DNA from: a virus | Length of the DNA: 64,000 bases | Virus record (IMG/VR): IMGVR_UViG_3300009165_000006 | Direction: 5' to 3' (one strand) | Part shown: positions 8,253 through 55,992 of the stretch, piece after piece | Position numbering within the stretch: position 1 is the first letter of the stretch | Layout of the letters: every line of letters starts with the position of its first letter | Position numbers and translations under genes: made by a program | Notes under the pieces: generated by a model | Databases searched by the model: none | Told to the model about the DNA's origin: nothing | The model's input: the letters and a program-made list of their open reading frames with translations, nothing else

Positions 8253-8287
8253 TTGAGTTTTGAGTAGGCTTACGCGTAATACTGGGC
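8253..8287 (+). promoter_or_regulatory. conserved promoter-like element TTGAG-N15-CGCGTAATA-N6-ATG
   Basis: Only plus-strand instance of the recurring motif; directly precedes ATG 8288. Confidence 0.5.
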
Positions 8288-9223
8288 ATGGCAAGCAACA
8301 TCAACTACAAGCAACTTCGGGATGGCACGTGGGGAGTTCAGGGGCGCAATCTTGTGACAGGCCGGACCGTGACGGTCACGAAGAAATCTGGTGAGACCAA
8401 GCAAGAAATAGTGGGAGAGATTGTTTGGAAAGGTACTGACGGCTTCTGCTACGCTAGAATTGCCGAACAGGGTGTTTCCTCTAAGTCTTCGACCCGTAGC
8501 AGCTCTACTCGAGGTAGTTCTACTCGTACCACTTCTACCCGGCGAAGCAGCCGGAAAAGCGGTAAGAAAGAGGGCGCCCAAGAGGGCAAATACTCATCAT
8601 CCCGCGAGGGCGATACGGGGGACGAGATCGGGAGAGTCTGCTTCCTCCGTGCGGGTGGAAACCGCATTCCAGTTGTTGTAGTGGGGTGGCAGACGGGCTA
8701 CTGTAGTGAAGATGGTCTCTCCTTTGGGTTACCAATGGATGATGGGTACTACACGGTTTCGTATTACAGAGACGCAACCGAGGAAGAGGCTACTGCACTT
8801 GCCTCCAAGGAAGCTGCTGCGAAGGCTGCGAAGGACTCAGCGGCCCAACAGGCCAAGGATGCTCGGATGGCAGCGGAGACGGCTGCTCGGGCACCTCTCG
8901 CAGGCCTTACGCGAAGTGATAGCTTGAGCACCCCTGCAGGTACCAAGACCTCGGTTGGTACCTACAAGAGTGAGCACGGGTGGGACATTAGCATCACCCG
9001 GGTCGAGATGGGTGATGCTAATGTGGTCTACATCGAGAGTGCCTACGGCTTCGACGACAGCCGAGAGTACCTCTGGGGCACTCCCGAGGTTCTTGCCACC
9101 CTCTACGAAGCCAGACTTGCTGAGCGTTCAATCAGCAAAGAAGAGGCTCAAGAGTACTTGTCCAAGTACTCGGGTTGCTATGGAGCAGACATCTACAAGT
9201 ACGTAGTCGCGCGAGGTGAGTGA
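8288..9223 (+). CDS. hypothetical protein (311 aa) with Ser/Thr/Arg-rich low-complexity segment
   Basis: ORF track; SSKSSTRSSSTRGSSTRTTSTRRSSRK run; promoter-like motif upstream. Confidence 0.45.
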   Translation: MASNINYKQLRDGTWGVQGRNLVTGRTVTVTKKSGETKQEIVGEIVWKGTDGFCYARIAEQGVSSKSSTRSSSTRGSSTRTTSTRRSSRKSGKKEGAQEGKYSSSREGDTGDEIGRVCFLRAGGNRIPVVVVGWQTGYCSEDGLSFGLPMDDGYYTVSYYRDATEEEATALASKEAAAKAAKDSAAQQAKDARMAAETAARAPLAGLTRSDSLSTPAGTKTSVGTYKSEHGWDISITRVEMGDANVVYIESAYGFDDSREYLWGTPEVLATLYEARLAERSISKEEAQEYLSKYSGCYGADIYKYVVARGE

Positions 9224-9275
9224 GAAGCTGCTCGATGCCTTGACTCCGCCCAGCACAACGGTGTAGCTGACTTCC

Positions 9276-9740
9276 ATGAAATCCACTGATCTTCTGAAGT
9301 TGGCTTGGAGCAAGATCGATCGACCTCATTCGATGTGTCCTGACATCGAGATTGGCTACGTTCGACGGGTGCTGGGTGAGGTAATGGCGGCCGAGATCAA
9401 GGACCGCGAGATCCTCGCCGAGGAATCCTATCGGTGGGTTTTTGGTCAACTCCTCGTGAGCCCCATGTCCCAGAGTAGTTTGGAGGATGATTGGTACGAG
9501 ACCAATCGAGTGTATCGGGAATGCATTCAACCACCCAACGACAATTACGAGGACGAGGGGTATCAGAAGGCCCTCAGCGACCAGTTCGAGGCTGAGGATC
9601 GGGAGAAGGAGCAACGGGCTGAGGAGGTCTCTGAAGCCCTCAGGTACCTCCTCACACGTGGACTAGTGGGTAGAGATCACGAAAGATACTTCGGCGATCC
9701 GGCAGCCTACCAGATGATGGTCAAGATGTCCTCGGTGTAG
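9276..9740 (+). CDS. hypothetical protein (154 aa)
   Basis: ORF track. Confidence 0.35.
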   Translation: MKSTDLLKLAWSKIDRPHSMCPDIEIGYVRRVLGEVMAAEIKDREILAEESYRWVFGQLLVSPMSQSSLEDDWYETNRVYRECIQPPNDNYEDEGYQKALSDQFEAEDREKEQRAEEVSEALRYLLTRGLVGRDHERYFGDPAAYQMMVKMSSV

Positions 9741-9750
9741 CTAACTCGAT

Positions 9751-10338
9751 ATGAAGACCTATCGAGTTGAGTTATCTTCAGATGAAGGGCCTATTCGAAT
9801 TGAGTTACTAATTCGAGATTCGAATTCTACCCTTGAGCCACCTATCAGGAGATGCTTGATACTGAAGGCAAATGGGGTACCCGCATTGGAATACTGTGAC
9901 CAATTACAAGCTGGGGAGCAGCCCAACAGTTTTCGAGTGTTACTTACCCCTAACCCCATCGACTTGACTATGACCGTCGAGGACGAGGTGCTTGAATCCC
10001 AGGACCCCGTTGTCATAGATGGGCTTTATGGTAGGCGTGCGAGAATTAGTGGGGGAATACCTGCTGTTAGAAGAACTCGTGAGGAGTTTCTGGCCTCAAT
10101 GAGCGACGAGTATCGAGAGGCATACCTTACTAAAATTGCACAGAAAAGAGCTCAATATGTAAACCTTGAGGGTCAGTCCCTTTATCGAGTTAACTTAAAC
10201 GAGCTATGGTCCATTCCGGAAGGGATTCCAAGACCCCTTGACTCAAAGTTATTATTGGTTGCTCCGGCTGAGCTACCTCCAGTTGAAGATGGGCCTATCG
10301 TAGTCGAATTTGAATCATGGGAGGGTTCCGATGATTAA
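9751..10338 (+). CDS. hypothetical protein (195 aa)
   Basis: ORF track. Confidence 0.4.
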   Translation: MKTYRVELSSDEGPIRIELLIRDSNSTLEPPIRRCLILKANGVPALEYCDQLQAGEQPNSFRVLLTPNPIDLTMTVEDEVLESQDPVVIDGLYGRRARISGGIPAVRRTREEFLASMSDEYREAYLTKIAQKRAQYVNLEGQSLYRVNLNELWSIPEGIPRPLDSKLLLVAPAELPPVEDGPIVVEFESWEGSDD

Positions 10339-10445
10339 CGGACAAGGCACGGGACTACGCCCCGAAACAGGGCCAATGTGTTTCGAAAGCGATTGGCGTG
10401 GAGTGTTCATCCGCGGGGACAACGCCTTTGGTGTAGCAAATACCC

Positions 10446-10661
10446 ATGGCAAAAGAAGCTTCCTCTGAATCCCTTGGGCACGGCAAAGTAGTCAGGGCGT
10501 CGGACAAGGCCCTGCAGATTGAGCTATCCGACATTGGTGAGACCAAGTGGATCCCACGTTCTATTATCCATGACGACTCCGAAGTCTACGATGATGGCGA
10601 GAACAAGGAGGGGGAAGTAGTGGTCAAGCAATGGTGGGCTGTGCAGGAAGGATTGGTCTGA
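10446..10661 (+). CDS. hypothetical protein (71 aa)
   Basis: ORF track. Confidence 0.3.
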   Translation: MAKEASSESLGHGKVVRASDKALQIELSDIGETKWIPRSIIHDDSEVYDDGENKEGEVVVKQWWAVQEGLV

Positions 10662-10699
10662 TGTTGACTATTACCTTCGTGCAGGTGTAGGTTTTTGCT

Positions 10700-10933
10700 A
10701 TGGCTACGCACGAAGAAGAACTCAGGAAGATCGTCGACAACATCGAACTACTCGAGGCCGAGCAAGAGTCCAACACTGAGGAGATGCAGCGAATCGTCCC
10801 TTTGGAGGGCCGTGACAAACGCTTGACGTACCTCAACAAGAGGAATGTGCACATCGAGAACGGCCTCAAGGAATTACACGAGAAGCGTAAGAGCAAGATC
10901 GAAGTTATCGAATGGGAACATCGAACTGGTTAA
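10700..10933 (+). CDS. small coiled-coil protein (77 aa)
   Basis: ORF track; charged heptad-like sequence. Confidence 0.3.
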   Translation: MATHEEELRKIVDNIELLEAEQESNTEEMQRIVPLEGRDKRLTYLNKRNVHIENGLKELHEKRKSKIEVIEWEHRTG

Positions 10934-11448
10934 GTAACAGACCACCCGCGCTCGAGCGATCGTAGAACCCGGCGAACAGCCCGATCGGCTCCGACAAATT
11001 GGTCCGATCGGAACTTGAGGTTCGGGTGAAGTTCGTGCTCTGAGGTGAAGAACGGATTGCTCGCCCCATCCTGGAAGTACTCAGCGAACCACTCGGTGGT
11101 ATAGCTGTAAGAAAGGGTGGCTCGGTAAGGTGGTATCGAGTATTCCCATGTGTTGTCGGGCTTCAAGTCCCGGGCGATGGCCTTCGGTCTCATGGATCCT
11201 CAACAACCCAAGCTAGAATCTCAGAGGCTGAGATGAAAGAAAATAGTTGACTCTCTGTCTCTAGCAGAACTTTTGGCTTTCCAGTAGAGGCTACTGAACA
11301 GAAACCTAGGGTGTAGACGTCCCATAGGGTACCTAGTTTGCTGATCGTGCCACAGTATGTTCTACAGTGACATTCGCTCTCTTTCCCTTGGACATTAACT
11401 AACGTTGCCATGTGTTGCCCTGACTTCGATGGTTTTGTCTCACTTAGC

Positions 11449-11916
11449 TCACGTTTCTACATGAAACCTACGAAGGCCTATGACGAACGTCATACCGCAC
11501 CCCATTTTTCTACCTTGCTCGTACCAACACCCATTCTTTCGAAGAGTTATGATTCTGACCTCACCCTTCGCATCCCGAATGGCCTCGAGCCCCCCATCCT
11601 TTTCTGAGTGAACGACCAGATCTTGTTGAATGATGAGGGTCTTGTAGCTCAAGAATCTAATGATCGTGTACGGATAGTAATCCGTACCCCAATGGAAGGT
11701 CACCCCCATGCCTATTGCCGGCTCTGGGGTCTGTTTTGCCCACTGTGCCACCAAATCGAGAACGGATGTTTCGGTGTTTGGGCTGTCAATTTCTCCAGGC
11801 CCCCTAAGGTAGAGGCGAATTCCATCCAAACTAACCCAACTCACTTTGGTCATCCGTCCATCAACGTTACAATAGACGGTACCTTCGGAGTCGATTGATA
11901 GGCTTTCTGTTGCCAT
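11449..11916 (-). CDS. hypothetical protein (155 aa)
   Basis: ORF track. Confidence 0.35.
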   Translation of the reverse strand: MATESLSIDSEGTVYCNVDGRMTKVSWVSLDGIRLYLRGPGEIDSPNTETSVLDLVAQWAKQTPEPAIGMGVTFHWGTDYYPYTIIRFLSYKTLIIQQDLVVHSEKDGGLEAIRDAKGEVRIITLRKNGCWYEQGRKMGCGMTFVIGLRRFHVET

Positions 11917-11952
11917 ATCGAATATTGCATGCCAAAGGTGGCGAAATCAACC

Positions 11953-12312
11953 CTAAAATGGCTCGGCAGTGGTTAAAATGATGATGCCTTCCAGCACCTG
12001 AGCCTCGGTGAGCTCCCAATCAACTTCTCGAGGGAGTCCAGCGATAACAGCTACCTTGAACTTCTGGTAGACCTCCAGGGCTTTCTCGTCGTCCCTTAGG
12101 ACGTCTGCGCAGATAGCCAGGGCGAGCTGGGCAGGCCCGCTTCCGGAATAGCCACACTCGAAACCGATCGAATGGTTCCGAAGATCGGAGCGTGGATCGA
12201 TCTTGTTTTCGACCTCACCAATTCGGACGAAAACTGACAGGATATCATCCTCATCACGTTCCCCTATGTAGACTTTCATGAGGTTAACCCCCCCTCCACT
12301 TGCAGGTTTCAT
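11953..12312 (-). CDS. hypothetical protein (119 aa)
   Basis: ORF track; preceded by the conserved promoter-like motif. Confidence 0.45.
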   Translation of the reverse strand: MKPASGGGVNLMKVYIGERDEDDILSVFVRIGEVENKIDPRSDLRNHSIGFECGYSGSGPAQLALAICADVLRDDEKALEVYQKFKVAVIAGLPREVDWELTEAQVLEGIIILTTAEPF

Positions 12313-12346
12313 ACTCTGTATTACGCACTAGTCACGACAATCTCAA
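12313..12346 (-). promoter_or_regulatory. promoter-like element TTGAG-N14-TGCGTAATA-N6-ATG (minus strand)
   Basis: Plus strand reads cat-actctg-tattacgca-N14-ctcaa. Confidence 0.5.
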
Positions 12347-12426
12347 TGACTTTTCAAGCTGCCAGTGCTTTTTTGTTGACTGCTAGGGTGATTCGAGTGC
12401 AATGAGGTGAAATCAGGCAGGTTTCT

Positions 12427-13404
12427 ATGGGCTCATTCAATCAAGTTTGCATGCTTTCTGGGATCCCAATCACCTATCGGGATCCGGTACGGGCTATCCT
12501 CGTGACGGAGCATCCCCGGGCTACCCTTGGTACCGCTGCGCGTGGTTACTCCTCGAAATACATCCCGAGGACCTTTCCAATTCGTGGTACTTACAACGAT
12601 TACGGGTCGTTAGAGAACGTCCCAGACGACGTATTCAAGCGTCTGTGGGTCAAGGGATTGCAGGATGACCTAATCGAGCTTTCGCAAGGTGCGAACCCAA
12701 GAGATGAAGCTGTCACGAAAGACTTGGACTTCGATGACTTGTGGGTGGCTATTTTGCAAGAAAGGCTACTAGTTCCTGGTCACGTTTCGAGGGGAATTGG
12801 CTTTTGTGAGCCGATGCCCTTGGAGGTTGTAGACCATCCGGTTGTTTCGCGACATATACGGAACGTTCGCGTTCAAGTAGCTATGATCCGCGAGGATGTC
12901 TGGCAGTCCATCATGGCTACCCCTCTCAAAACCAGGGCTTTCTTCGAGCTACCTGAGACGTTGGAAGCTCTTCAAGGGGCGGTTCAAGCTTACTGGGGGG
13001 AGTGCTCCACCCTGTTGAACAAGCCCATTAGCAAGTTTGACAAGCAGTTACTTCGAAACACTATTCGTTGTATCCAGCTAGAAGGACCCGTGGCGAACCT
13101 GCCAAGTTATACACTTCGAGACGAATGGGTCTTCGGACTCGGATCGCATTGGCTCATGGCTCTCGAGGGCGAGATTCAAACCCAGGAGTTGAACGACTTC
13201 TACCAAGGCGTAGCCGAGATGGTCTGGTTCATCTGGGTCAACTCCTATCGCAATCGAGAAGGAAGTCTTTGGAAACCCTCCTACGCAGGTGGTGAGGATC
13301 TTCCTTGGAATGACCATCTCCGGTTCCATAAAGACATGGTGCGGATTCTCGAAGGTTTGATTGCCAAGGACAAGGAAGAATACGAAGAATCATGCACACC
13401 ATAA
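12427..13404 (+). CDS. hypothetical protein (325 aa)
   Basis: ORF track. Confidence 0.45.
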   Translation: MGSFNQVCMLSGIPITYRDPVRAILVTEHPRATLGTAARGYSSKYIPRTFPIRGTYNDYGSLENVPDDVFKRLWVKGLQDDLIELSQGANPRDEAVTKDLDFDDLWVAILQERLLVPGHVSRGIGFCEPMPLEVVDHPVVSRHIRNVRVQVAMIREDVWQSIMATPLKTRAFFELPETLEALQGAVQAYWGECSTLLNKPISKFDKQLLRNTIRCIQLEGPVANLPSYTLRDEWVFGLGSHWLMALEGEIQTQELNDFYQGVAEMVWFIWVNSYRNREGSLWKPSYAGGEDLPWNDHLRFHKDMVRILEGLIAKDKEEYEESCTP

Positions 13405-13736
13405 GTCTTGAGCAGGCGCTATCCATATGGTCGGAACTTGAGCAAGCGTATCACAGGCCTGAGACTCATCGTACTATCGAGCTCTACCTGTACCGATTGG
13501 TTACCGGGTCCCCTTCTGCTTATCGAGTTGAACTCATAGAAAGTCCAGGACCTATCGGCGATAACGTTCGGGAAATCTACCGAAAGGCAAATCGAGCTCT
13601 CTATGCTCTATTGAAGCACTTCTGTGACATCAGAGAGGCCTCAATCACTGTGGAGGGCCAAGAGCTTGGACCTTGGTTGGCTGATTCCCTTCAATGTCAC
13701 AGAGTCCAAGTCACTGTGAATCCAAGAAGAAAGTGA
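13392..13736 (+). CDS. hypothetical protein (114 aa)
   Basis: ORF track. Confidence 0.35.
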   Translation: MHTISLEQALSIWSELEQAYHRPETHRTIELYLYRLVTGSPSAYRVELIESPGPIGDNVREIYRKANRALYALLKHFCDIREASITVEGQELGPWLADSLQCHRVQVTVNPRRK

Positions 13737-13960
13737 TGACTAATAAGCCCGTGATCCAGGTTTCTCACGCTGATCTCGAACGATGGGATGATGGACCTTA
13801 CAAGTCCAAGTGCCCAACCTGCAAGGATGGGATCCTCATGATCTGCCGCGATTCATCTACGTTCAAGCTACAACGTCGAGATCGATGCATCAGTTGTGGT
13901 CAACAATTCAACTACACGGACGCGGAGATCAATGGAGAACGGTTCGAGGGGGACAAGTAA
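13694..13960 (+). CDS. small zinc-ribbon protein (CPTC...CISC)
   Basis: ORF track; two CxxC pairs. Confidence 0.35.
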   Translation: MSQSPSHCESKKKVMTNKPVIQVSHADLERWDDGPYKSKCPTCKDGILMICRDSSTFKLQRRDRCISCGQQFNYTDAEINGERFEGDK

Positions 13961-14104
13961 GCACAAGTAGGTTCTCTGCGGCATTCTGGTTACAAGAACT
14001 CTTGCGGATACTCGCTTGACACGTTGCCTAGATCCTGCTCTCCTTCTTGGTGACTCAATTGTTGAGTTCTAGCCTAGAAGGAATTCGGGGCGGGAAGGAA
14101 CACC

Positions 14105-15250
14105 ATGAAACCTACAGTAGCAGTTATCTCCTTAGTTCTCCAAGCCACAGCCCTAACAGCCTATGCACATCCGGCTTGTCACGGACAGTTACAGGGGGCC
14201 ATCAACACTCCGGCAGATGATTCCGTACATTGCCCGACGGTATGTGATCCGACTGGATGCCAATGTGATCCCACTCAGCTCTCCCCCTATAGCCTCGAGT
14301 GGTGGTACTGGACGGGCCACCTGAAGACACTGAGTGGTCGCAAGTTTGGGTTCTCGAACATCGTCTACACGGGGATCGACCTCGTCACCTACCTTCCACT
14401 CACATGGTCGGACAGTACGGTGGCCGACCTTCGTAACGGCACGTTCAACTATGGTGGACGAGAAGCTATTCTCGGGTTGCCGACGAAGGTCCCCAACGGA
14501 TTCGAGTTCACTTTCCCTCACTCGCAGGTCTTTGGGGGTAATGGAACTGATGCGATCCACTCAGTGATCGTCGACCAAACCTCGGGCAAGCGGTACGAAG
14601 TGGATCTGGCGATTCACTCGGTGAAAAAGCCGGTTCAACAGCGTGCCGATGGACTCGTTTACTACTATTCCCGCGAGCAAATGCTTGCAGTCGGAGCCAT
14701 CGTTATCGATGGGATACCCCAGATCGTAACGGGAACCGTCTGGTTCGACCATCAGTTTGGGGATCAACGAGACGCTTACCAGAATGTCACCACGTGGCAG
14801 TGGTTCGGGATCCAACTCTCGGGCAACCGGCAGCTCGTCCTCTACGACGTCCAGGTGAACGAGAACGAGACTCGCCCCGAGTACGCCTCCGGAGTCATCG
14901 AAGGGACCTTCACGGATCCCAACTGCGGAGTCACTCACCTGACCCGGAACGACTTCACCATCACGCCCCTTGGTAGCTGGCAGTCGGCTTGGATGCCCCC
15001 AGGCTGGGGTGACTTCCAGTGCATCTACCCGATGGGGTGGAGCATCCAAGTCCCCAGCAAGGGGATTGACATCACCGTGGATCCCTACTTCGATGCCCAG
15101 GAGATCATCGCCCCCTTGCCGGCTCCTGAAGGCACATTGACCGTTGGTGACCGGTATTGGGAAGGGGATGCCGCGGTGACGGGTAGCGATACCGGTGAGG
15201 CCTTCGTGGAACTCACCGGCTTCTGCCCATTTGCCCCAGGATCTAACTAG
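14105..15250 (+). CDS. secreted protein with N-terminal signal peptide; possible CrtC/AttH-like lipocalin-fold hydrolase
   Basis: MKPTVAVISLVLQATALTAYA signal. LEWWYWTGHL resembles the EWWY motif of CrtC/AttH family. GGAAGGA SD upstream. Local GC is higher than the surroundings. Confidence 0.45.
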   Translation: MKPTVAVISLVLQATALTAYAHPACHGQLQGAINTPADDSVHCPTVCDPTGCQCDPTQLSPYSLEWWYWTGHLKTLSGRKFGFSNIVYTGIDLVTYLPLTWSDSTVADLRNGTFNYGGREAILGLPTKVPNGFEFTFPHSQVFGGNGTDAIHSVIVDQTSGKRYEVDLAIHSVKKPVQQRADGLVYYYSREQMLAVGAIVIDGIPQIVTGTVWFDHQFGDQRDAYQNVTTWQWFGIQLSGNRQLVLYDVQVNENETRPEYASGVIEGTFTDPNCGVTHLTRNDFTITPLGSWQSAWMPPGWGDFQCIYPMGWSIQVPSKGIDITVDPYFDAQEIIAPLPAPEGTLTVGDRYWEGDAAVTGSDTGEAFVELTGFCPFAPGSN

Positions 15251-15255
15251 TTTGG

Positions 15256-15519
15256 TCAGGTCACGGTACCTGCAATTTCTTTCTTGGCTACAGCTTGCAG
15301 GTACCGTATGACCAACCAATCGTCGACAACGTCCCCTGCTCTTAAGTATTGGGGGGCATCGGGTGGCACGTACTTAGTAAGTTCATCCTTGAAATTTTCA
15401 AGTTCCTCGGGTGTGAGGCCTTGTTTGGTTAGGTCAAAATCATTGTACCCATGAAGACAGAATTCACTAGCTGCATCATTCAGGATAGTCACTAAAACTT
15501 TCAATTGAGCACGATTCAT
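15256..15519 (-). CDS. hypothetical protein (87 aa)
   Basis: ORF track. Confidence 0.3.
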   Translation of the reverse strand: MNRAQLKVLVTILNDAASEFCLHGYNDFDLTKQGLTPEELENFKDELTKYVPPDAPQYLRAGDVVDDWLVIRYLQAVAKKEIAGTVT

Positions 15520-15705
15520 TCCCCGGTGTACACCAGTTCATGCACTTTTGTGGAGACCTATTTCACGATCTGCCGTTTTATTTGGTGACGGCGTTGCCGT
15601 TCTTAGGTACTCTCGTCGCCTGGTGTCGATCCATGGTCAAAAGGCTTCGTGTGGATAGAAGACGATGACTGAGGCTCTTAGGCGAGGCAGAGGTTAAGCT
15701 CACGG

Positions 15706-16167: not shown

Positions 16168-16201
16168 GCCTTCTATTACGCACCACCAGCAGAGAATTCA
16201 A
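16168..16201 (-). promoter_or_regulatory. promoter-like element TTGAA-N14-TGCGTAATA-N6-ATG (minus strand)
   Basis: Plus strand reads cat-gccttc-tattacgca-N14-ttcaa. Confidence 0.5.
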
Positions 16202-17345: not shown

Positions 17346-17356
17346 GCATAGGTTCA

Positions 17357-17845: not shown

Positions 17846-17887
17846 CAAGCAATTGTCTGATTCCTAGGATTGGTGTAGGGTTGAAGC

Positions 17888-47903: not shown

Positions 47904-48968
47904 TCAACAACCCAAAGTGTCGACGATTCGGCTAATCTTCTGGACCTTGGACCGGAGCTGATCTTCGGCAGCCATTCGGGCCACGGATCGATCCTCATCG
48001 TTACCCTCGCACCACAGTTCAAGACCGTGCACGAAGATTTCGGTGTGCCACTTCCCACCTGTTTGCTTCTCGGAAAGAACAACATCCTCGTTCTGGTAGT
48101 GGCAATGAGTTGGGTTTACCGAGTGCATGGGTTGGTTCATCCATGTCGAGAACTCTGACTGTACTTTGGCTTTGCTCTTAGCGAGATCAGCATCGTCCTC
48201 ATCATCGTCATCGGACTCGTCACCCTCCTCGTCATCATCGTTCTCAGACTCATCATTCTTCCCCTCATCCTCATCAGACTCGTCGCTCATAGCTTGAAGA
48301 GCTTCTCCAAGATCTAGGGTATCATTTGAGGGGTCATCTCCGAGGATTGGGCTAATCTTCGCTTTGGTTGCTAGAGAGTACCTGCCCCTCACGGGGCAGA
48401 TGAACCGATTCTTGTGTGCCGAAAGTATATTACTTACTGAACTCCTTCGCTTGGGCATCCAACATCTCTTCTCCAGCCTAGTGCAAATCTCGCCGACGCT
48501 GAGAGTCTCAGTTCCAATGACATAGATTACCCTATCGAGTAACTTTTGAGGTTTTTCATCTTCCGACATCACAACTTCCTCCTCCACCGATACTGACACC
48601 TCTACCACAGGTGCCCGAGTATCGGAACTACTTACTGAGGTGGCGGGGCTCGTCGGGGTTAGCCCTGTCCCATTAAGCAGTTTCTTATGTTCAATCACGG
48701 CTATAGCGGTTGCCCTCCTTTCTTTCTCTTGCAACCGCCTCGCTTCAACGATTGCCAGCCTGCGGTCCGTGAACAAGCAGCTCTCGCTGGCCACGAATTC
48801 GTAATGGTCTTCAACTGAACGTACGGTCACAGGATCAGGAGGGGCATTCGTCGGCGAATGCCCTTCAGTACCAGCTTTTATGATGAAAACTGGTATGATC
48901 TGCCCCGTTCCCGCTATCCAGCGCATAGGGTGGGTAGTCATGCCCCGTGTTATTACGCATAGATGCAA
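47904..48968 (-). CDS. highly acidic protein (long D/E run); probable true ATG start near 48942, downstream of the promoter-like motif
   Basis: ESDEDEGKNDESENDDDEEGDESDDDDEDDADLAKSK segment. The track start is a TTG; an in-frame ATG follows TGCGTAATA-N9. Confidence 0.45.
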   Translation of the reverse strand: MHLCVITRGMTTHPMRWIAGTGQIIPVFIIKAGTEGHSPTNAPPDPVTVRSVEDHYEFVASESCLFTDRRLAIVEARRLQEKERRATAIAVIEHKKLLNGTGLTPTSPATSVSSSDTRAPVVEVSVSVEEEVVMSEDEKPQKLLDRVIYVIGTETLSVGEICTRLEKRCWMPKRRSSVSNILSAHKNRFICPVRGRYSLATKAKISPILGDDPSNDTLDLGEALQAMSDESDEDEGKNDESENDDDEEGDESDDDDEDDADLAKSKAKVQSEFSTWMNQPMHSVNPTHCHYQNEDVVLSEKQTGGKWHTEIFVHGLELWCEGNDEDRSVARMAAEDQLRSKVQKISRIVDTLGC

Positions 48969-48979
48969 GAAAATTCAAC
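48943..48979 (-). promoter_or_regulatory. promoter-like element TTGAA-N14-TGCGTAATA-N9-ATG (minus strand)
   Basis: Plus strand reads cat-N9-tattacgca-N14-ttcaa. Confidence 0.45.
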
Positions 48980-49055
48980 AGAAATTGTCGAGTGGTGAAA
49001 TCTCCTACCTTGTACCCAATCGTGACCAGGCGCATCCTCGGTGTAGCCCATCTGA

Positions 49056-49541
49056 ATGGCACTCCTAGACTTCGTTCTCAGTGAAAATGAGAGCTACATC
49101 AACCGATCCTACTACCATTCGCACTGCGAAGAGCACGAAGCCTCCCGAGAGGAAGTCCTTCTGTGGCGTAAAGTGAAGGAGCTGGAAGCTATCCTTCAGA
49201 GCCTCCGACCTCAGGTTGTCAATGAGCTCCTAGCGGCTATCCCTAGGGATACTGAAAAGGTGTGGGTAAATGTCAGAAGCATGGAACTCCTGAAGAAGTA
49301 CGCTGGAGACCTAATCAGACAAGAGATCCTCTCTAGTATTGACAGCACCTACCAAGAGATCTGGGGATCAATTCAGGTCCTCTCCGACTATGACGAGGAG
49401 CCGCATACCATCTGGCTCGCGGTGGACCCAAACTTACCAGATGATGGGGTCAGCACTGAGAGAGCTTCCACGTACCTGACCCCGGTAATCGAAACTCTCC
49501 GATCTGCAATTGACCATCAGCCTGTTGAGGTGGATTCATAA
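49056..49541 (+). CDS. hypothetical protein (161 aa)
   Basis: ORF track. Confidence 0.35.
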   Translation: MALLDFVLSENESYINRSYYHSHCEEHEASREEVLLWRKVKELEAILQSLRPQVVNELLAAIPRDTEKVWVNVRSMELLKKYAGDLIRQEILSSIDSTYQEIWGSIQVLSDYDEEPHTIWLAVDPNLPDDGVSTERASTYLTPVIETLRSAIDHQPVEVDS

Positions 49542-49805
49542 TTACAGTGATATTGCTCCCTTTAAAGCTCTCCAGGAAATCACTGCCCACTATGATCCTC
49601 TTCACCTCATATTGAAAGACCTTCGCCCTCAACAGGAATAGTCGAAGCTCGTTCAAGTTACTGAAGCAAGGTAGGTAGTAGCGACCTGGTGTAGTCGATT
49701 GAATGTAGATCGGCGACCCGTTTGCCCAAGGGAGTAATGCCCCGGAGAGGCTACCTCGCACTGATTTAGGTCCTTCAGTCACGCAGCAGCACCCTAGCAC
49801 CAATT

Positions 49806-50108: not shown

Positions 50109-50291
50109 GGGGGCGCATGACCCCGAAGTGGCTCAGCGTCGCTCATCACTTCGACTCCGACACAGTCCGTTCAAGGCGGTTAGCAGCCTCTGAGAGGTCT
50201 CCGTTAATGAGTTGGGCACCCGCCACGCTTCTTCACTACACCAAACTCAAACACGATTCTGGTGTAGTGTACTGCGACGAATGAGGTGTGA

Positions 50292-51218
50292 GTGCTAGCA
50301 ACAAGAAAATGCGCATTCGACTCATGCGAGATAGAGTTCGAACCAACACATCCATACCAACAATACTGCTGTACTAGGTGCAAGGAGCGCGCTCGTTGGC
50401 ATCGTTCAGAACAGATTGAAAAATCCAAGAAACGCAGCCAAAAGTGGTACTCCGATCCGGAAAATAAGCTCAACCACAGGGTAGCTCGAAGGGGTAGACG
50501 CATGTCAGTAAAAACTGGTAGAGGTGAATGGGAGATGCCAGCCCCAATGATCGAATACCTACCGGGCGGATGCGTCCCGATTGCTATTGAGTGTGGGTAT
50601 AAGTTCGAACATTGGCAACTTGCATCACTTCACGGAATGATGAGTACGATCACTGGACCTCACTCAGCCAACAACCCAGTATTTACACTGTTTCCGTGGC
50701 ACATAGGGTGCGGATGGGCCGCGTACATTCGAGATATTGAGTTAGCCAGATCGATTGCCATGCGTACACACGTGGTCAACTTCAATGACCGTGAGCAGGA
50801 ACTCGCTCTAGGATGGCTCGTACGTGTCAAAGCACCACAGATCAAGCCAGGTGCTTGGAAACTTCGAATCACAACTATTACACCTGTGTGTTGTCGCGCA
50901 ACTGGAGGGACTTATTACATGGCTCCAACTGCGAACAACATCAAAGGGACTCTTGAGGTAAACGTTGCACGAAGGCTTGGAATAAAGACTGAGAAACACG
51001 ACGTTCAGGTCAGATTGCTTGACTCAAAAGCCTTCTTAGACAAGCTTCGACTATCTGGCAATGGCAGCAAGCTTGGTGACATTTGTGGGTGGTCTGGAAG
51101 CATCGACATTGAAGTGAATGCGCTTGGTAGGCTTCTGCTTGAATGTGCCGCCCTCGGCATGGGATTGGGAGGCAAGTTGGCGTTTGGATTTGGGCGAATC
51201 AAGGTAGAGACAATATGA
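50292..51218 (+). CDS. RAMP-like protein with C-terminal glycine-rich loop (Cas6-like candidate); N-terminal Cys cluster
   Basis: Extreme C-terminus ALGMGLGGKLAFGFGRIKVETI fits the RAMP G-rich loop GhGxxxxxGhG. N-terminal CAFDSC...CCTRC. GTG start; its TGA stop overlaps the next ATG (ATGA). Confidence 0.4.
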   Translation: MLATRKCAFDSCEIEFEPTHPYQQYCCTRCKERARWHRSEQIEKSKKRSQKWYSDPENKLNHRVARRGRRMSVKTGRGEWEMPAPMIEYLPGGCVPIAIECGYKFEHWQLASLHGMMSTITGPHSANNPVFTLFPWHIGCGWAAYIRDIELARSIAMRTHVVNFNDREQELALGWLVRVKAPQIKPGAWKLRITTITPVCCRATGGTYYMAPTANNIKGTLEVNVARRLGIKTEKHDVQVRLLDSKAFLDKLRLSGNGSKLGDICGWSGSIDIEVNALGRLLLECAALGMGLGGKLAFGFGRIKVETI

Positions 51219-52387
51219 GGCCCTCGCCAAGTCAGCTGCTTCACAAAGCAATAGGAAGCCCGCGGGTTGACGGGTGCTCGGAGGCAAACGGTCTTTGCTA
51301 CGTTTGCGCAGGTCCTGTAGTTCGAGGAAAACCCGTTGTCGACTGGTGTACTTCAAGTTACACAGATCAGAATCGTGCGCGTTGTCCTGCAGCAATTTAC
51401 GTCTGTGAGGCATGTTGCATGCTTGCTGCACGTACTTTTCCAGTCCCTGGGCGCCCGCCAGGACAGTGTTCGGTTTGCGAGGGAACCGGAACTGTGAAAA
51501 AGATTCCTCCCAAGGGCAAAGGAAAGGCGTCCAAGATCGGAGACGCTTGCCCTAAGTGTGGTGGTACGGGCGAAGCGTCGTTCGGTGGCAACTTCCGCAA
51601 TTACAGCCACCTATATGAGGAGGGGTGGGATTCACCGTCACTTCCGGATGGAACCGTGATCCCAGGCTACCTGAACGCATCAAAGGGAGAAAAACCGATC
51701 GTGCTTAACTTCCTAAGGCGTGACCACCACGGCATGTGGTTCGCTGCAATCGCAGACAGTGGACAGAAGCATGTGGTGCATCATACACCACCGAACCTGC
51801 TCGGTCCAGGCGGAACGGTGCTGTTCGAGGAGACGCTTGTTAGCATCCCACCAGGTCTCTCGCTGGTAGACGAAATGACAGCACTTCTCACCGCTGGAGC
51901 AACAAAGGAAGAGATTCTCATCGGAGAATATAGCCAGTTCACATGGCTGCGCTTGGAGACAGCAATCCGTGAATTTGAGGGTCGTAACGCGAAGCGGCGG
52001 CATACTGGGTGGTTTCGTTTGGCGCTATGGCTATCTCAACGAGATGAGGCAGCAGTAGCTATAAGGATTGAAGCCGAGAAGGCAGCAGAGAAAGAACGTA
52101 AGGCACGGACCAAACAGAGAACCAAGGAGACTCAAAGTGTTGAAACAGGAAGAAAGAAAGCATCTCGAAACACTTCTTGTCGAGATGCTGTTATCGATCC
52201 GAGACCGGTATGTGAAGGACAAAGGGGGGAAGGTAAAGCCGGACTACCTCGAACAGATCCAAAACCGAGCCAGAACAAGTGCAGAAATGTCACCGACCAT
52301 CAATCGGTGGGTGAACGAGCTTCAAATAGACCTACAAATGCAGAGCATCGACACGTGGGGCAGCTCAGCCTCTTCAACGCTCCTTGA
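51215..52387 (+). CDS. cysteine-rich protein with CxxCxGxG zinc-finger repeats (possible large-subunit analogue); 3' end uncertain
   Basis: CYVCAGPV, CSVCEGTG and CPKCGGTG repeats. C-terminal ~100 codons are low complexity and overlap the next gene in another frame. Confidence 0.4.
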   Translation: MRPSPSQLLHKAIGSPRVDGCSEANGLCYVCAGPVVRGKPVVDWCTSSYTDQNRARCPAAIYVCEACCMLAARTFPVPGRPPGQCSVCEGTGTVKKIPPKGKGKASKIGDACPKCGGTGEASFGGNFRNYSHLYEEGWDSPSLPDGTVIPGYLNASKGEKPIVLNFLRRDHHGMWFAAIADSGQKHVVHHTPPNLLGPGGTVLFEETLVSIPPGLSLVDEMTALLTAGATKEEILIGEYSQFTWLRLETAIREFEGRNAKRRHTGWFRLALWLSQRDEAAVAIRIEAEKAAEKERKARTKQRTKETQSVETGRKKASRNTSCRDAVIDPRPVCEGQRGEGKAGLPRTDPKPSQNKCRNVTDHQSVGERASNRPTNAEHRHVGQLSLFNAP

Positions 52388-52607
52388 TCTAGTAAGCTTC
52401 TGCGACGAACACTCGTGCCACAGAGAAGCGAAAATGATGGTAATTCGCGATGGTGCGTTCTTGTTTGCATTGCTCCGCAAACAGATCGAACTTCGCAAAG
52501 AAGAACGGGAGCGAGAGAAGCAGGAGCGAATCCTTGGGAAACTTACCAAGGAAGACATGTTGGCAGCAGCAGAAGAGAATGGATTGTTAGTTGAGGAAAC
52601 GGCATAA
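52137..52607 (+). CDS. small alpha-helical protein (~156 aa; Cas11-like small-subunit candidate) starting at GTG inside the 3' part of the upstream gene
   Basis: AAGGAG SD 7 nt upstream of GTG 52137. Sequence is helical and charged. Its TAA stop overlaps the next ATG (TAATG). Confidence 0.4.
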   Translation: MLKQEERKHLETLLVEMLLSIRDRYVKDKGGKVKPDYLEQIQNRARTSAEMSPTINRWVNELQIDLQMQSIDTWGSSASSTLLDLVSFCDEHSCHREAKMMVIRDGAFLFALLRKQIELRKEEREREKQERILGKLTKEDMLAAAEENGLLVEETA

Positions 52608-53590
52608 TGGAGACAACTCGATACATTTCGGTGGTCAGGGCAGTTCAACCGATCGCGCATCACAAGGGTAGTATCGGAAATCACGCAACGATCATGCGTG
52701 CAGCTGTAAGGCTTCCTGGCGGAGAGATCGCAGACGTGCCAGAGGGCACTGGTAACGCAGTTAGAAATCGATTACGCCGAGCTGCCGCGATCTGTTCATT
52801 GGACGCAGCTGGAATTCTGGGGGATCCCCAACTCGAACGTGGAGCGATGCGGCTGCTGTTCAACGGCGGAATGCTCACTGGAAAGGGTGATGGGACCACG
52901 ATCAACATCGATCGATGGCGCGAGCTTGTGACGCTATTCCCGTTTCTTGGGATCCTTGGGGGTTGCATCGACAATCGTACCCAAGGCGGACAACTCAATG
53001 TTGACGCACTGAAGCTCATCTGCGAGGAAAACATGCACTCGCTAAATCCATGGACGCGACAGTGGCTCAAGGATAACAATGAAGGGATCTGCGAAAGCTC
53101 CTACCTACTTGAGAAAGTTCAACGGGTGAATATGGACCCGGAGATCCTTCCCGAGAACCTGAAACTGCTTTCGGAGGGTGCGAGGTTACAAGTCTATAAC
53201 AAGCTACTAGCACAGGGTAAAGCTCACGAGGAGGGGAACGCGATCGAGGCCGCAAAAGTCAAGAGCGACATGATGCCGCATACGTTCGAGCGAATCATTC
53301 GCGGGTCATTGTTTCAACTGTCGTTCTTGTTGAGGTCTTATAACGAGCTTGAGCGAGACGCTTTCGAGTACGCCTACTCCTGCCTATTGAACAACTTCCG
53401 TTTCGGAGGAAAACAAGCATCAGAACACGGGGAACTCGAATTCCTTGCGGGTGCCAGGGTTCACTTCAAACAATACACAGGAGAGCTCGACATCGGTGAG
53501 CGAAAAGGAACCGGTGATCTGTTCCGAGCGCACGTTACCGATCACAAGGAACAGCTGGTGAACTGGTTACGGCACGAGGTAGCAGCGTGA
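52607..53590 (+). CDS. Cas7-like backbone protein candidate (327 aa)
   Basis: Operon position between the small-subunit-like and Cas5-like genes. Gly-rich segments LLFNGGMLTGKGDGTT and FRFGGKQASEHGE. N-terminal VP.GTGNAVRNRLRR resembles the RAMP S.KG..R motif. Weak. Confidence 0.3.
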   Translation: METTRYISVVRAVQPIAHHKGSIGNHATIMRAAVRLPGGEIADVPEGTGNAVRNRLRRAAAICSLDAAGILGDPQLERGAMRLLFNGGMLTGKGDGTTINIDRWRELVTLFPFLGILGGCIDNRTQGGQLNVDALKLICEENMHSLNPWTRQWLKDNNEGICESSYLLEKVQRVNMDPEILPENLKLLSEGARLQVYNKLLAQGKAHEEGNAIEAAKVKSDMMPHTFERIIRGSLFQLSFLLRSYNELERDAFEYAYSCLLNNFRFGGKQASEHGELEFLAGARVHFKQYTGELDIGERKGTGDLFRAHVTDHKEQLVNWLRHEVAA

Positions 53591-54240
53591 ACTACGAGCC
53601 AATCAAGGTCAGCTGCAAGCTTGCCGAGGGGTTCGTAATGCGAACCCCTACCGTGTTGGATTCACTATTGGCCGCAGTGATAGCAATGCGTGAGCAGTTG
53701 CCTACTCCGATATCCGAGGACGAAATCAAAGAGATCCCAGTACCCATTGACGAAGCTGCTGGGATTCGACTGTGCTCATCGGCCATGTTTGAGATAGAGG
53801 AGACATTCGGCTCATTTCGAACACGACGCCCACCAATCGAAGAATACTGCCACTTTGGAAAGCGTGGTGGTTCCGTATCGATTGCTAGTGGCCCCGACAA
53901 GCTCTATATGATGGAGTATGACTACCAGTTCGCAGTTGACGACAAAGTGACATGGTTTGCATTGGGAGACATTGTCAGTGTACACAACTTACTGACGGAT
54001 GTATTCTACCTCGGCAAACATCGCTCAATCGGCAAAGGGCGGATCATTGAAGGCTCATGGAAGGTTGAAAGCTGTAAACCCTGGGGTGAAGGGTTTCCGG
54101 TGGTTCATAACGGCACTCCGAAGCGTCCCTTGCCGTTAGGTTGGCCTGGCGTGGCCACGACAACCAGGACCGGTTACGCAACGTTACGACCCCCCTATTG
54201 GATGTACTCTCGTGAGGAAGCCTGCTTCCTCCCAGGATAG
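53587..54240 (+). CDS. RAMP-like protein with glycine-rich loop (Cas5-like candidate, 217 aa)
   Basis: FYLGKHRSIGKGRI loop. GTG start overlapping the upstream stop (GTGA). GAGGT SD. Confidence 0.35.
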   Translation: MNYEPIKVSCKLAEGFVMRTPTVLDSLLAAVIAMREQLPTPISEDEIKEIPVPIDEAAGIRLCSSAMFEIEETFGSFRTRRPPIEEYCHFGKRGGSVSIASGPDKLYMMEYDYQFAVDDKVTWFALGDIVSVHNLLTDVFYLGKHRSIGKGRIIEGSWKVESCKPWGEGFPVVHNGTPKRPLPLGWPGVATTTRTGYATLRPPYWMYSREEACFLPG

Positions 54241-55701
54241 ATGAAAGCTCTAGCTTGCACGCTCGACACATGGGATGCCTTCGCAAGGGCCACCGGAAGA
54301 ACTGAGACCACCGGTCTCACGTTTCCCCTACGAATACTCGAGATTATCGGAAAGCCCTACGGACTAGAGCTCGAATACGCGAACAAACTGAACCGCCATG
54401 ACGCAGTGTTCATAGCGGTTCACGACTTTAGTTCGATGCTGTCCCTTGGAAAGGCGATGCAGAAGCTGAAATTGCCGCTACTTGCCAAAGACCGCGACCG
54501 AAGTCACCCGCTCGTATGGATGGGCGGACAAGGTACACGCAATCCGCTACCTATTGCCGATATTGCTGACTTGATAGTGCTTGGGGATGCAGAGCTCTCG
54601 CTGCCTCAATTACTCCAAATATGGGAGCGAAATGGGAACAGTAGAGAGTTCCTGGTGGGAGCGTCTACTGTCTCTGGGGTATTCGTTCCTTCGATCCACA
54701 ACGAAAATGAGGTGACCCTGAAAATGGGTTGGTCACCGGATATACGAACTTCACTTCAAAGCAGAAGCCTACCAATGGAACAGCATGCCAGAATCGAGCT
54801 CTCGCGTGGATGCAAGAGCAAGTGCTCATTCTGCGGACTCGGATGGATGGGTCCAGTTCGACATAACACCTTGGACGACGTACGGGATGCTATCCGAGGA
54901 GTGCCTTCGGTCCACCTGCAGGCTTGCGATGCCGAAGCTTACCCGGACATCGTTCGGTTGCGTGAGTGGATGCGCGAGAGAGGAATCAAAGACACCGGGT
55001 GTACCTCACGTCTCGATTCTAATTACGATGCTAGGAGCGAATTTCTATTCGACAAGTTGTTCAATTTCGGAATCGAGGCTGTGACCGAGCGTGTCCGCCG
55101 CAAAATCGGCAAGGCCAGACTAACGAACGACTTCATCGTTGAGGCTATGTGCGGGCTATACGAGAGACAGAAAACGCGGAAGGGTGAAGCCTGTGAGAAG
55201 ACCAATTGGCACATGATCTCTGGACTTCCGGGGGAGTTGGTATCTGAAACCGCGGAACTGGCGCAGACAATCCGAAGGCTCGATGCGACAATGCTGGAAC
55301 GGAGAATCACCGGGCAGCTAACGATCCGATGGCAACCGTTACTACCCTGTCCTGGGACACCACTGCAGTGGTGTCCCATTGGGCCGGATTGCGAGCCGTG
55401 GAGTAAGGCCTTGGCCAGAAACATCCGCAAAACGTACTGTCTGAAGCTAGAACATGGTTCCGGGAGACAGGAACGAAAGCACGCCCTGACCTGTATACTG
55501 ATGCGGTCAGGGCGTGTGGGGGCAAAGCTGATCGCACTTGAGTCAAAGTCTGCGGTTACCCCAGTTGCCGCGGTCGAGCTTACCGGGACGACTACCGGTA
55601 AGCTCGACCTTAGTGGTCCGCTTCCATGGGATTTCGTGCATGGTTACTACCCGCGAGGGGTGCTCGAAAAGGCCTACAAAAAGACCATACAATGCACGTA
55701 G
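54241..55701 (+). CDS. B12-binding-domain radical SAM enzyme
   Basis: IELSRGCKSKCSFCG contains the CxxxCxxC cluster in the RGC..C.FC context typical of cobalamin-dependent rSAM enzymes. N-terminal B12-binding-like region (IAVHDFSS...LVWMGGQGT). ATG immediately after the upstream TAG. Confidence 0.65.
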   Translation: MKALACTLDTWDAFARATGRTETTGLTFPLRILEIIGKPYGLELEYANKLNRHDAVFIAVHDFSSMLSLGKAMQKLKLPLLAKDRDRSHPLVWMGGQGTRNPLPIADIADLIVLGDAELSLPQLLQIWERNGNSREFLVGASTVSGVFVPSIHNENEVTLKMGWSPDIRTSLQSRSLPMEQHARIELSRGCKSKCSFCGLGWMGPVRHNTLDDVRDAIRGVPSVHLQACDAEAYPDIVRLREWMRERGIKDTGCTSRLDSNYDARSEFLFDKLFNFGIEAVTERVRRKIGKARLTNDFIVEAMCGLYERQKTRKGEACEKTNWHMISGLPGELVSETAELAQTIRRLDATMLERRITGQLTIRWQPLLPCPGTPLQWCPIGPDCEPWSKALARNIRKTYCLKLEHGSGRQERKHALTCILMRSGRVGAKLIALESKSAVTPVAAVELTGTTTGKLDLSGPLPWDFVHGYYPRGVLEKAYKKTIQCT

Positions 55702-55715
55702 ACTGGAACGAGGAA

Positions 55716-55958
55716 TCAGTTAGATCGTTTTGGCGGAAGAAGCTCGTGAAAAACGAATCCATCCGTAGACTCTGTAAGAAACAGACGCATCCCCGGCTTC
55801 AATTCCGGGTACTTCGCCACATCCTCAGCGGTAATAGTGAACTTGAAAATCGTATCATCCACTTCGTCTGCCATACCCTTTTGGGCGCGTTCCCAAAAGT
55901 CAAGAACAAACTTGGGCTCTCCTTGAAACTTGTCAGTCAATCGATCTCCATTCAGCAT
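55716..55958 (-). CDS. hypothetical protein (80 aa)
   Basis: ORF track; promoter-like motif upstream. Confidence 0.35.
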   Translation of the reverse strand: MLNGDRLTDKFQGEPKFVLDFWERAQKGMADEVDDTIFKFTITAEDVAKYPELKPGMRLFLTESTDGFVFHELLPPKRSN

Positions 55959-55992
55959 ACCCTCTATTACGCATGAAGAACCAATAACTAAA
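55959..55992 (-). promoter_or_regulatory. promoter-like element TGCGTAATA-N6-ATG (minus strand; weak -35)
   Basis: Plus strand reads cat-accctc-tattacgca. Confidence 0.4.

Follow-up and report, generated by a model that had tools for sequence, protein, structure and literature searches.

That a -10 element fused to an open reading frame (ORF) gives rise to leaderless mRNA is already established for Deinococcus-Thermus, Actinobacteria and the Thermus phage phiYS40. In Deinococcus-Thermus a -10 motif lies 6-7 bp before ORFs that are expressed from leaderless mRNAs (PMC12340547), and -10-adjacent leaderless mRNAs have likewise been described in Actinobacteria (PMC3160421, PMC4633059); the middle and late transcripts of phiYS40 are mostly leaderless according to the summary of Sevostyanova et al. 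2007 in PMC3594737, and the leaderless lambda PRM-cI transcript starts at the AUG itself (PMC10491246). Here a 64,000-nt stretch of viral DNA (IMG/VR record IMGVR_UViG_3300009165_000006, below called the window) is analysed, in which two classes of short elements stand at fixed distances from start codons, class 1 being the composite TTGAR-N14/15-YGCGTAATA-N6-ATG and class 2 the simpler GGTGTA(G)-N9/10-ATG. The elements are probably, at a rough probability of 0.7, sigma-dependent promoters that give leaderless, mostly monocistronic mRNAs, with class 1 being read by a phage FliA-like sigma factor.

Phage sigma factors with promoter sets of their own include T4 gp55, which reads TATAAATA, SPO1 gp28 and gp33/34, and phiEco32 gp36 (TAATGTATA); in each case the core polymerase of the host is redirected to a short, highly conserved element near -10 that is specific to the phage. 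To our knowledge, the mRNAs of these three systems are leadered and translated from Shine-Dalgarno (SD) sites, with no fixed fusion between the promoter and the start codon. In Thermus phage P23-45, -10/-35 promoters coexist with -35-independent ones, and the gp39 protein disables sigma region 4, which makes a temporal switch possible (PMC3950348). The sigma-28 (FliA/WhiG) promoter has the form TAAAGTTT-N11-GCCGATAA, with the blocks (-36)TCTAAAG(-30) and (-15)GCCGATAA(-8) (PMC12784957; Koo et al. 2009 cited there); a conserved arginine recognises its GC as an extended -10, and the A at -11 flips out (PMC12784957).

Class-1 elements in the window

The core YGCGTAATA has ten exact matches in the window where 0.20 would be expected, a number reached by no shuffle, and the full pattern TTGARN{14,15}YGCGTAATA has eight against an expectation of 0.00; at a ninth site, with the core at 55965-55973 (-), TTTAG replaces TTGAR. 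The distance from the core to the ATG is exactly 6 nt at six of these nine sites (binomial p = 1.2e-9), the respective starts being 8288+, 12312-, 16167-, 17811-, 41691- and 55958-, with longer gaps of 9 nt at 48941- and 12 nt at 43637-, and every site that has a start codon uses ATG. The preliminary description of this DNA, which had placed the motif before at least eight genes with these spacings and, in seven of them, with TTGA(G/A) 14-15 nt further upstream, is thereby confirmed in all its coordinates, as is its remark that the genes are mostly small ORFans (median length 88 aa). It had also called for motif discovery in upstream regions, and in a scan of 5-mers by offset upstream of all 1,917 ATGs of the window, TAATA at offset 6 ranks among the top signals. 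Seven of the nine sites lie on the minus strand. Two more copies of GCGTAATA, at 22958- and 24922-, have no -35 box and are antisense inside genes, which is the chance number for an 8-mer in 64 kb (about two expected). The nine sites are as follows.

8253-8281, plus strand: class 1, TTGAG (8253)-N15-CGCGTAATA (8273-8281)-N6-ATG at 8288; 311-aa gene 8288-9223
12319-12346, minus strand: class 1, N6 to ATG 12312; DUF6166 gene 11953-12312
16174-16201, minus strand: class 1, N6 to ATG 16167; 61-aa DUF6887-like gene 15982-16167
17818-17845, minus strand: class 1, N6 to ATG 17811; 88-aa gene 17545-17811; back to back with the class-2 site at 17872
27971-27999, plus strand: class 1 without ATG, ATA at N6 (28006); absent from the list of the preliminary description
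41698-41725, minus strand: class 1, N6 to ATG 41691; 14-codon mini-ORF 41647-41691
43650-43677, minus strand: class 1, N12 to ATG 43637; 123-aa gene 43266-43637
48951-48978, minus strand: class 1, N9 to ATG 48941; gene 47904-48941; divergent from the class-2 site at 49040
55956-55992, minus strand: class 1 with the TTTAG variant of the -35 box, N6, ATG 55958; 80-aa gene 55716-55958; divergent class-2 start at 56026

At the site without ATG, the ATA at 28006 is in frame with a 53-codon ORF ending at 28167, 2 nt before the GmrSD_N gene at 28170, and it points to a start codon that has decayed or else to a transcript with a leader. The TAA within the core of this site is the stop codon of gene 27197-27997; the TAA of GCGTAATA was considered as a meaningful stop codon and rejected, as it ends an upstream ORF at three of the nine sites, which is the chance rate. 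The mini-ORF MTKTYSLILIGESP (41647-41691, -) overlaps the start of gene 41354-41650 through ATGA, a coupling correctly recognised from the outset. Short ORFs of 8-21 codons directly after class-1 promoters recur in related contigs (loci L016 at 3640, L072 at 269, L122 at 2994 and L033 at 6765), and in some of them the next ATG follows within 3 nt, or an SD and an ATG follow, similarly to the mini-ORF at 41691.

Conservation of class 1 in related contigs

A scan of IMG/VR with the pattern of the preliminary description gave 38 loci, among them five contigs with 5-10 matches each, and in these five contigs (173 kb in total) all copies of GCGTAATA were examined, including those that had not seeded the search. 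TTGA is found 15-16 nt upstream in 52 of the 53 copies, and N6-ATG follows in 44 of the 53. The consensus in the relatives is longer than in the initial pattern, aa.tct.GTTGAGATC-N5-7-CTCGYGCGTAATA-N3-(R)GY-ATG, and the extended motif GTTGAGATC..CTCGYGCGTAATA-N6-ATG has more than 200 occurrences in related contigs from IMG/VR and metagenomes. Against the rigid -10 block the -35 block is displaced by exactly 1 bp, the CTCG extension staying with the -10 block. In a metagenome scan, at least 109 loci with at least 169 unique class-1 sites were found; the fetched parts of one 443-kb contig hold at least 27 sites, which among the matches listed all lie at 36-187 kb. The strand partition of the motif classes in this relative is similar to that of the window.

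Two groups of orthologues were aligned, one for the 311-aa gene at 8288 and one for the DUF6887-like genes at 16167 and 17811. Motif blocks and ATG are invariant in either group whereas the spacers and flanks are divergent, a pattern of purifying selection confined to the blocks, and the protein similarity begins at Met1. The orthologues of the 8288 gene in L034, L035 (a 512-kb contig) and L046 all retain the motif and the ATG.

A second class of elements

Class 2, which was not in the preliminary description and was spotted in the listed upstream regions of the rough genes, consists of GGTGTA(G) followed by 9 or 10 nt and ATG, with no conserved -35 box, and as a putative second leaderless class it refines the earlier one-motif view. 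GGTGTAG is enriched in the window (15 against 5.5 expected), and 20 of the 43 GGTGTA sites have an ATG 9-11 nt downstream (p = 9e-16); in the relatives, 29 of 100 GGTGTA sites stand at N9/10 before ATG. The scan of 5-mers by offset ranks TGTAG/GTGTA at offset 9-10 at the top beside TAATA at 6, and when aligned on their common bases both classes read GYGTA-N9/10-ATG. Class 2 outnumbers class 1 in the window and is found mostly on the plus strand, and the starts after GGTGTA are ATG and GTG in a ratio of 9:1 for N9 and 8:3 for N10, and TTG does not occur. The class-2 sites are listed below.

4583-4602, plus strand: class 2, ATG 4600
9260-9278, plus strand: class 2, GGTGTAG-N9-ATG, ATG 9276
9734-9753, plus strand: class 2, ATG 9751; the upstream gene ends on the TAG of the core
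10430-10448, plus strand: class 2, ATG 10446
10684-10702, plus strand: class 2, ATG 10700
15517-15534, minus strand: class 2, ATG 15519; core within the palindrome GGTGTACACC
17872-17890, plus strand: class 2, ATG 17888
22500-22517, plus strand: class 2, ATG 22515; ADP-ribosylglycohydrolase gene
24829-24846, plus strand: class 2, ATG 24844
33605-33623, minus strand: class 2, ATG 33607
42990-43007, plus strand: class 2, ATG 43005; decayed paralogous copy at 38798-38815
44482-44499, minus strand: class 2, ATG 44484
49040-49058, plus strand: class 2, ATG 49056
50261-50294, plus strand: class-2 core GGTGTAG, leadered, 24 nt before GTG 50292, with a GAGG SD between
56010-56028, plus strand: class 2, ATG 56026
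57074-57091, plus strand: class 2, ATG 57089
62043-62061, plus strand: class 2, GTG start 62059
63899-63917, plus strand: class 2, ATG 63915; the gene runs off the window

Four successive genes on the same strand, starting at 9276, 9751, 10446 and 10700, have one class-2 site each. In the ADP-ribosylglycohydrolase gene, ATG 22515 is probably the true start in place of the TTG 22443 chosen by the ORF caller (ORF 22443-23456), and the Pfam match begins just after this ATG; several other ORF calls that start with TTG or GTG are probably too long for a like reason, for example at ATG 24844. The palindrome GGTGTACACC (15525-15534) presents the class-2 core on both strands with an ATG at N9 on each (15519 - and 15540 +). 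A class-2 promoter with its gene start is duplicated between 38798-38830 and 42990-43244, about 75% identical over about 90 nt, and the copy starting at 38813, of just 5 codons, looks like a decayed paralogue. At 49688-49708, the sequence GGTGTAG-N8-ATG-TAG is a class-2 site whose start codon runs straight into a stop codon.

Probable transcription from the start codon

In class-1 sites, position -1 is a pyrimidine (C/T) in 51 of 52 cases, -2 is G in 36 of 52 and -3 is a purine in 49 of 52, and class 2 shows a like trend before the ATG (17/26 and 18/21). A pyrimidine at -1 and A at +1 represent the usual preference of transcription start sites, and the nearly invariant pyrimidine is what would be expected if transcription starts at the A of the ATG. 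An SD does not fit into the 6 nt that separate the class-1 core from the ATG, and an SD-like sequence is found in just about 28 of 120 rough window genes. Both classes show features of leaderless genes, a -10-type element a few nt upstream, no SD and a preference for AUG, and class 1 also has the two-block layout of the sigma-70 family, with boxes about 35 and 10 bp upstream and a spacer play of +/-1 bp. The class-1 gap of 6 nt agrees with the 6-7 bp seen in D. radiodurans leaderless genes (PMC12340547). Three pairs of divergent start codons 67-114 bp apart (17811/17888, 48941/49056 and 55958/56026) hold one class-1 and one class-2 element each, placed back to back, so that no space is left for leaders, with 67 bp between the start at 55958 (-) and that at 56026 (+).

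In the mechanism proposed here, many of the genes would each have a promoter of their own, so close that transcription begins at, or about 1 nt from, the A of the ATG. A class-1 promoter would be laid out as GTTGAG(A/T)T, a spacer flexing by 1 bp, (CTCG)YGCGTAATA, 6 nt and ATG, and a class-2 promoter would have only the -10-type element GGTGTA(G) followed by 9-10 nt and ATG; the messages would be translated without SD, and class 2 would constitute a -35-independent set, perhaps expressed earlier than class 1. It is unlikely that transcription instead starts a few nt upstream of the ATG to give very short leaders with non-SD, 30S-dependent translation. The spacing between core and ATG is variable (N5-N12) at a minority of sites, and class 2 has both N9 and N10, as such short leaders would allow, and aligning A-11 and the GC extended -10 by the sigma-28 numbering shifts +1 by one base (PMC12784957). 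With 6 nt between core and ATG, however, an upstream start would have to lie nearer to the -10 than polymerases usually tolerate, and Y at -1 together with A at +1 fits the start-site preference exactly at the ATG.

The preliminary description had further suggested two expression classes, motif-led and SD-led. The operon at 50-55 kb (50292-55701) does consist of five co-oriented, tightly packed genes with GAGG/AGGA SD sites, four of them without a Pfam match and one a radical SAM gene, but it is itself headed by the class-2 core at 50261, so the split is not simply one of motif versus SD. Since a leader containing an SD comes after this core, the core probably acts in transcription and not in translation. 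The operon is the only clearly SD-led block in the window, and an inverted second class-2 core is located ahead of it at 50236-50242.

The same site bears on the notion that the motifs are not promoters at all but a translation or RNA signal, such as an atypical ribosome-binding site or a site of processing, or else an operator bound by a regulatory protein, which is very improbable. The distance to the start codon is fixed, as such a signal would demand, and the class-2 GGTG is complementary to part of the 16S 3′ tail. A ribosome, on the other hand, has no need of a second conserved box about 35 bp upstream with +/-1 bp of play, neither motif is palindromic, unlike most operators, no Rfam matches are found in the window, and the same class-2 core precedes a genuine SD at 50261-50292. 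GGTG was also considered as an SD in its own right and rejected, since its distance of 12 nt to the ATG exceeds what that part of the anti-SD would permit, and since the invariant TA would stay unexplained.

Probable promoter type and the candidate sigma factor

The preliminary description had read the motif as a -35/-10 promoter with the transcription start at or near the ATG. The bipartite layout, the 1-bp shift, the conserved blocks and the pyrimidine at -1 all support the overall geometry, but the -10 part is not sigma-70-like, and a composite of the sigma-28 type would fit better. The base following TAATA is mostly C or G and a T in just 2 of 52 sites, and without T-7 the element does not represent the housekeeping -10 TAnnnT; class 2 likewise has no T enrichment at the equivalent position, and a canonical scan does not pick these sites. 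Canonical sigma-70 promoter matches in the window at 8000-20000 are not enriched (3 against 7.5 +/- 2.8 in shuffles); intrinsic-terminator-like hairpins in the same interval are at chance level (10 against 10.5 expected). Promoters of extracytoplasmic function (ECF) sigma factors combine an AAC core at -35 with a CGT-type -10, neither of which is dispensable, whereas class 1 has the CGT but TTGAG, and class 2 has no -35. In the TGn extended -10, which needs no -35, the TG stands at -15/-14, one base ahead of the hexamer; class 2 is likewise without a -35, but its GGTG abuts the TA and is one base out of register.

The core contains TAATAC/G, which resembles the 5′ end of the T7 promoter, and the information content of the motif is high, as would suit a single-subunit (T7-like) phage polymerase or another polymerase without sigma; a literature search for GCGTAATA also gave T7-promoter primers only, which are irrelevant. 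Such a polymerase is nevertheless scarcely credible here. A T7-type promoter consists of a single contiguous stretch of some 19-23 bp across +1, while the elements described here form no such block: class 1 has two blocks with a variable spacer, and between core and ATG only R-G-Y is conserved. No polymerase gene was seen in the 64 kb of the window and about 500 kb of family loci.

Class 1 resembles the sigma-28 promoter in part, sharing G-15, C-14, A-11 and A-8 of its 8-bp composite -10 but not the CGA core, and having a -35 box of the T..AGTTT form. Its -35 sequence, TTGAG(A/T)T(T/C), shares six of eight bases with TAAAGTTT at a gap of 12-13 bp instead of 11, and so departs from the sigma-28 -35 box. 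A Pfam scan of the ORFs of the metagenome loci revealed Sigma70_r2 and Sigma70_r4 domains in L128:491-1048, which encodes a 186-aa sigma, and L090:4490-5287, the latter being identical to a copy in L039/L172 on the 443-kb genome, with partial copies in L108, L120 and L175. The best NCBIfam match of this sigma factor is FliA_WhiG (TIGR02479) with E = 4e-27 and 95 bits, below the 189.6-bit cut-off, and the sigma-70 superfamily model is passed; its seven PDB matches all belong to WhiG or FliA, and it retains the RIRGxxxDExR segment. A search of IMG/VR with the sigma alignment gave seven loci, the two closest of which are on class-1-rich family contigs (11 and 8 sites). The five distant, GC-rich sigma loci (24-30% identity) contain no GCGTAATA, and candidate fixed-offset motifs at these homologues were rejected as palindrome and repeat artefacts. 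From the sigma-28-like layout and the presence of a FliA/WhiG-type sigma in relatives, we favour and infer that the host's core RNA polymerase (RNAP) reads at least class 1 with the phage FliA-like sigma. The dedicated sigma factor put forward in the preliminary description thus has a candidate in the relatives, although in the 64-kb window no sigma or RNAP was found either by Pfam or by a hidden Markov model of the family sigma. Upstream of the sigma gene, CCTTCTGTCC.GGGGTA is conserved in two relatives, and in one of them GGGGTA-N10-GTG constitutes a class-2-like element, which hints that class 2 may act earlier in the cascade.

Chromosomal copies and the question of the host

Over 185,579 species genomes the strict pattern gave 22 matches against about 17 expected, which is at chance level. 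Matches to the extended consensus were found twice in each of two metagenome-assembled genomes (MAGs) labelled 'uncultured delta proteobacterium', MFD01476.bin.3.99 and MFD09286.bin.2.92, and once in a Polyangiaceae MAG; one more is on a 5-kb fragment binned to an Omnitrophota MAG, which carries an orthologue of the window gene at 8288. The MAG copies are located on chromosomal contigs of 0.1-0.8 Mb beside defence-type genes (Mrr, SbcC-like ATPase), and precede tyrosine-recombinase paralogues (Phage_integrase, E = 1.5e-30), an integrase-like ORF and a conserved 122-aa gene, which adjoins a divergent ECF-like sigma ORF and whose paralogue has a degenerate motif. The extended class-1 loci in MAGs are the following.

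L057, 4526-6270: extended class-1 locus
L058, 775-1335: extended class-1 locus
L060, 6168-7136: extended class-1 locus
L061, 3201-4169: extended class-1 locus
L043, 7150-7313: extended class-1 locus

No FliA-like sigma was found in the 8-kb MAG loci that carry the class-1 motif. The Sigma70_r2-like ORF beside the motif in L057 was considered as the cognate sigma and rejected, as relatives of it turned up neither in the window nor in the loci or IMG/VR, and it is unrelated to the phage FliA-like sigma. The MAG loci look like integrated elements; they could be relatives that have integrated, or islands reacting to the phage sigma, and the motif copies suggest a Myxococcota-like host range.

The MAG copies also keep alive the possibility, tentative but to be taken seriously, that the leaderless promoters are read by a host sigma, either an unusual primary or an alternative one, and that the phage FliA-like sigma serves other genes. 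Extended class-1 motifs stand on deltaproteobacterial and Polyangiaceae chromosomal contigs before tyrosine recombinases and the 122-aa gene, the MAG promoter is conserved between paralogues and between MAGs, a FliA-like sigma is found neither in the MAG loci nor in the window, and small ORFans such as the class-1 genes are typical of early genes transcribed by the host polymerase. In contrast, the -35 is always TTGAG and never TTGAC, the -10 is without T-7, canonical sigma-70-like sites are if anything depleted (3 against 7.5 expected), and the chance-level frequency of the strict pattern in all but a few MAGs argues against a general host promoter; the chromosomal copies furthermore lie beside integrases, presumably in mobile elements.

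Several observations weigh against leaderless promoters with a phage FliA-like sigma for class 1. GCGTAATA shares only four of eight bases with GCCGATAA and the CGA core is absent, the class-1 spacer is 1-2 bp longer than that of sigma-28, strict sigma-28 numbering places +1 one base beyond the A of the ATG, and the T at -7 of the canonical -10 is absent from both classes. Several class-1 sites have spacings of N7-N19, or no ATG, so not every transcript would be leaderless. The presence of the sigma gene in this genome is assumed from relatives, the link between sigma and motif is a co-occurrence on few contigs, and the MAG copies of class 1 fit recognition by a host sigma at least as well. 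The assignment of the elements as probable promoters, and of the messages as probably leaderless, draws on geometry and conservation.

The window and its phage family

A megablast of 20 kb of the window against cultured and deposited phages gave no nucleotide match, while an 18-kb JGI contig is identical to part of the window. Scans of the 64 kb for tRNA genes and with Rfam found none, and look-ups of the proteins encoded at the window ends, aimed at sequence beyond it, gave no entry. Pfam matches among 111 rough window ORFs are few, namely RNA ligase 2, CCA-adding enzyme, ThiF, ADP-ribosylglycohydrolase, nucleoside hydrolase, a Tad2-like protein, GmrSD_N, radical SAM and two TnpB, and do not include structural, sigma or polymerase genes. 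Homologues of 58 of 120 window ORFs are present in related loci at 30-89% amino-acid identity, the relatives being IMG/VR contigs of 36-98 kb, one contig of 512,571 bp and one metagenome contig of 443,068 bp, with domains such as P22 antirepressor, GIY-YIG/T5orf172 endonucleases, Thg1, R2K ATP-grasp and UDG. Given this gene content and relatives of up to 443 and 512 kb, the most fitting reading of the window is that of an ORFan-rich accessory region in the genome of a huge phage that is uncultured. The sole protein match in a deposited phage (LR745208.1, 485 kb) has no motif in the surrounding 40 kb.

The window encodes a protein with a Tad2-like (anti-Thoeris) domain, and related contigs carry the Thoeris domains ThsA-Macro and ThsB-TIR as well as PvuII restriction and methylase genes, so that defence and counter-defence genes share promoter-rich regions in the window and the family loci. 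An IS605/IS607-type TnpB is encoded at 45399-46643 (-), with best plasmid matches in Rhodothermus and Thermus at about 45% identity, and a TnpB-like ORF at 115-1572 (+) has a weak Cas12f1-like_TNB match below the cutoff. The guide RNA of TnpB-type elements is normally encoded 3′ of tnpB, and a near-class-1 site, TTGAGA-N..-GCGTAAGA at 45315-45322 (-), is located just 3′ of the tnpB at 45399-46643.

Comparison with known systems

If leaderless promoters with a phage FliA-like sigma for class 1 are the correct reading, the lineage would be the first among huge phages for which reliance on leaderless expression is shown, and class 1 would represent a new promoter specificity for a phage-borne group-3 sigma. 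The motifs would provide base-exact start codons and transcription units for hundreds of mis-started ORFans (as for 22515 in place of 22443) and a sequence tag for fragments of the family in metagenomes, and the same promoter in Myxococcota-like MAGs offers a handle on the host. A broader and doubtful extension would be that a huge soil and sediment phage lineage runs much of its accessory genome as one-gene leaderless units under its own divergent FliA-type sigma, with a GYGTA core of undescribed specificity, and that Myxococcota-like islands sense that sigma, either satellite-like or as a trigger of defence. The proposed mode of expression also raises the question of how the phage biases host ribosomes to 5′-terminal AUGs. 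In phiYS40 this may occur via IF2 and IF3.

A close parallel is found in Deinococcus-Thermus, where a -10-type element likewise stands at a fixed 5-7 nt without SD, an optional -35 boosts some of the promoters, and the arrangement also aids the correction of start codons. The element there, however, is the housekeeping TANNNT of a cellular genome, whereas here GYGTA without T-7 occurs in two information-rich, stereotyped classes in a huge phage. With phiYS40, as far as the published summary describes it, the lineage shares a large phage genome and would share mostly leaderless transcripts and the steering of host ribosomes to 5′-terminal AUGs; in that account the host belongs to another phylum with a different base composition, a host sigma-A-type -10 is used with no phage sigma known, and leaderlessness was demonstrated experimentally, whereas here it is inferred. 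P23-45 similarly combines -35-dependent and -35-independent promoter classes in one phage, but its late promoters have a TG-extended -10, while here GYG abuts TA and a gp39-like factor is not identified. In contrast to sigma-28 promoters, the targets are phage ORFans and not flagellar genes, and unlike lambda PRM-cI, which concerns a single regulatory gene, the architecture is genome-wide. What appears to be new is the GYGTA core without T-7 in a sigma-28-like layout, its conservation over hundreds of sites, the huge-phage setting and the candidate phage sigma.

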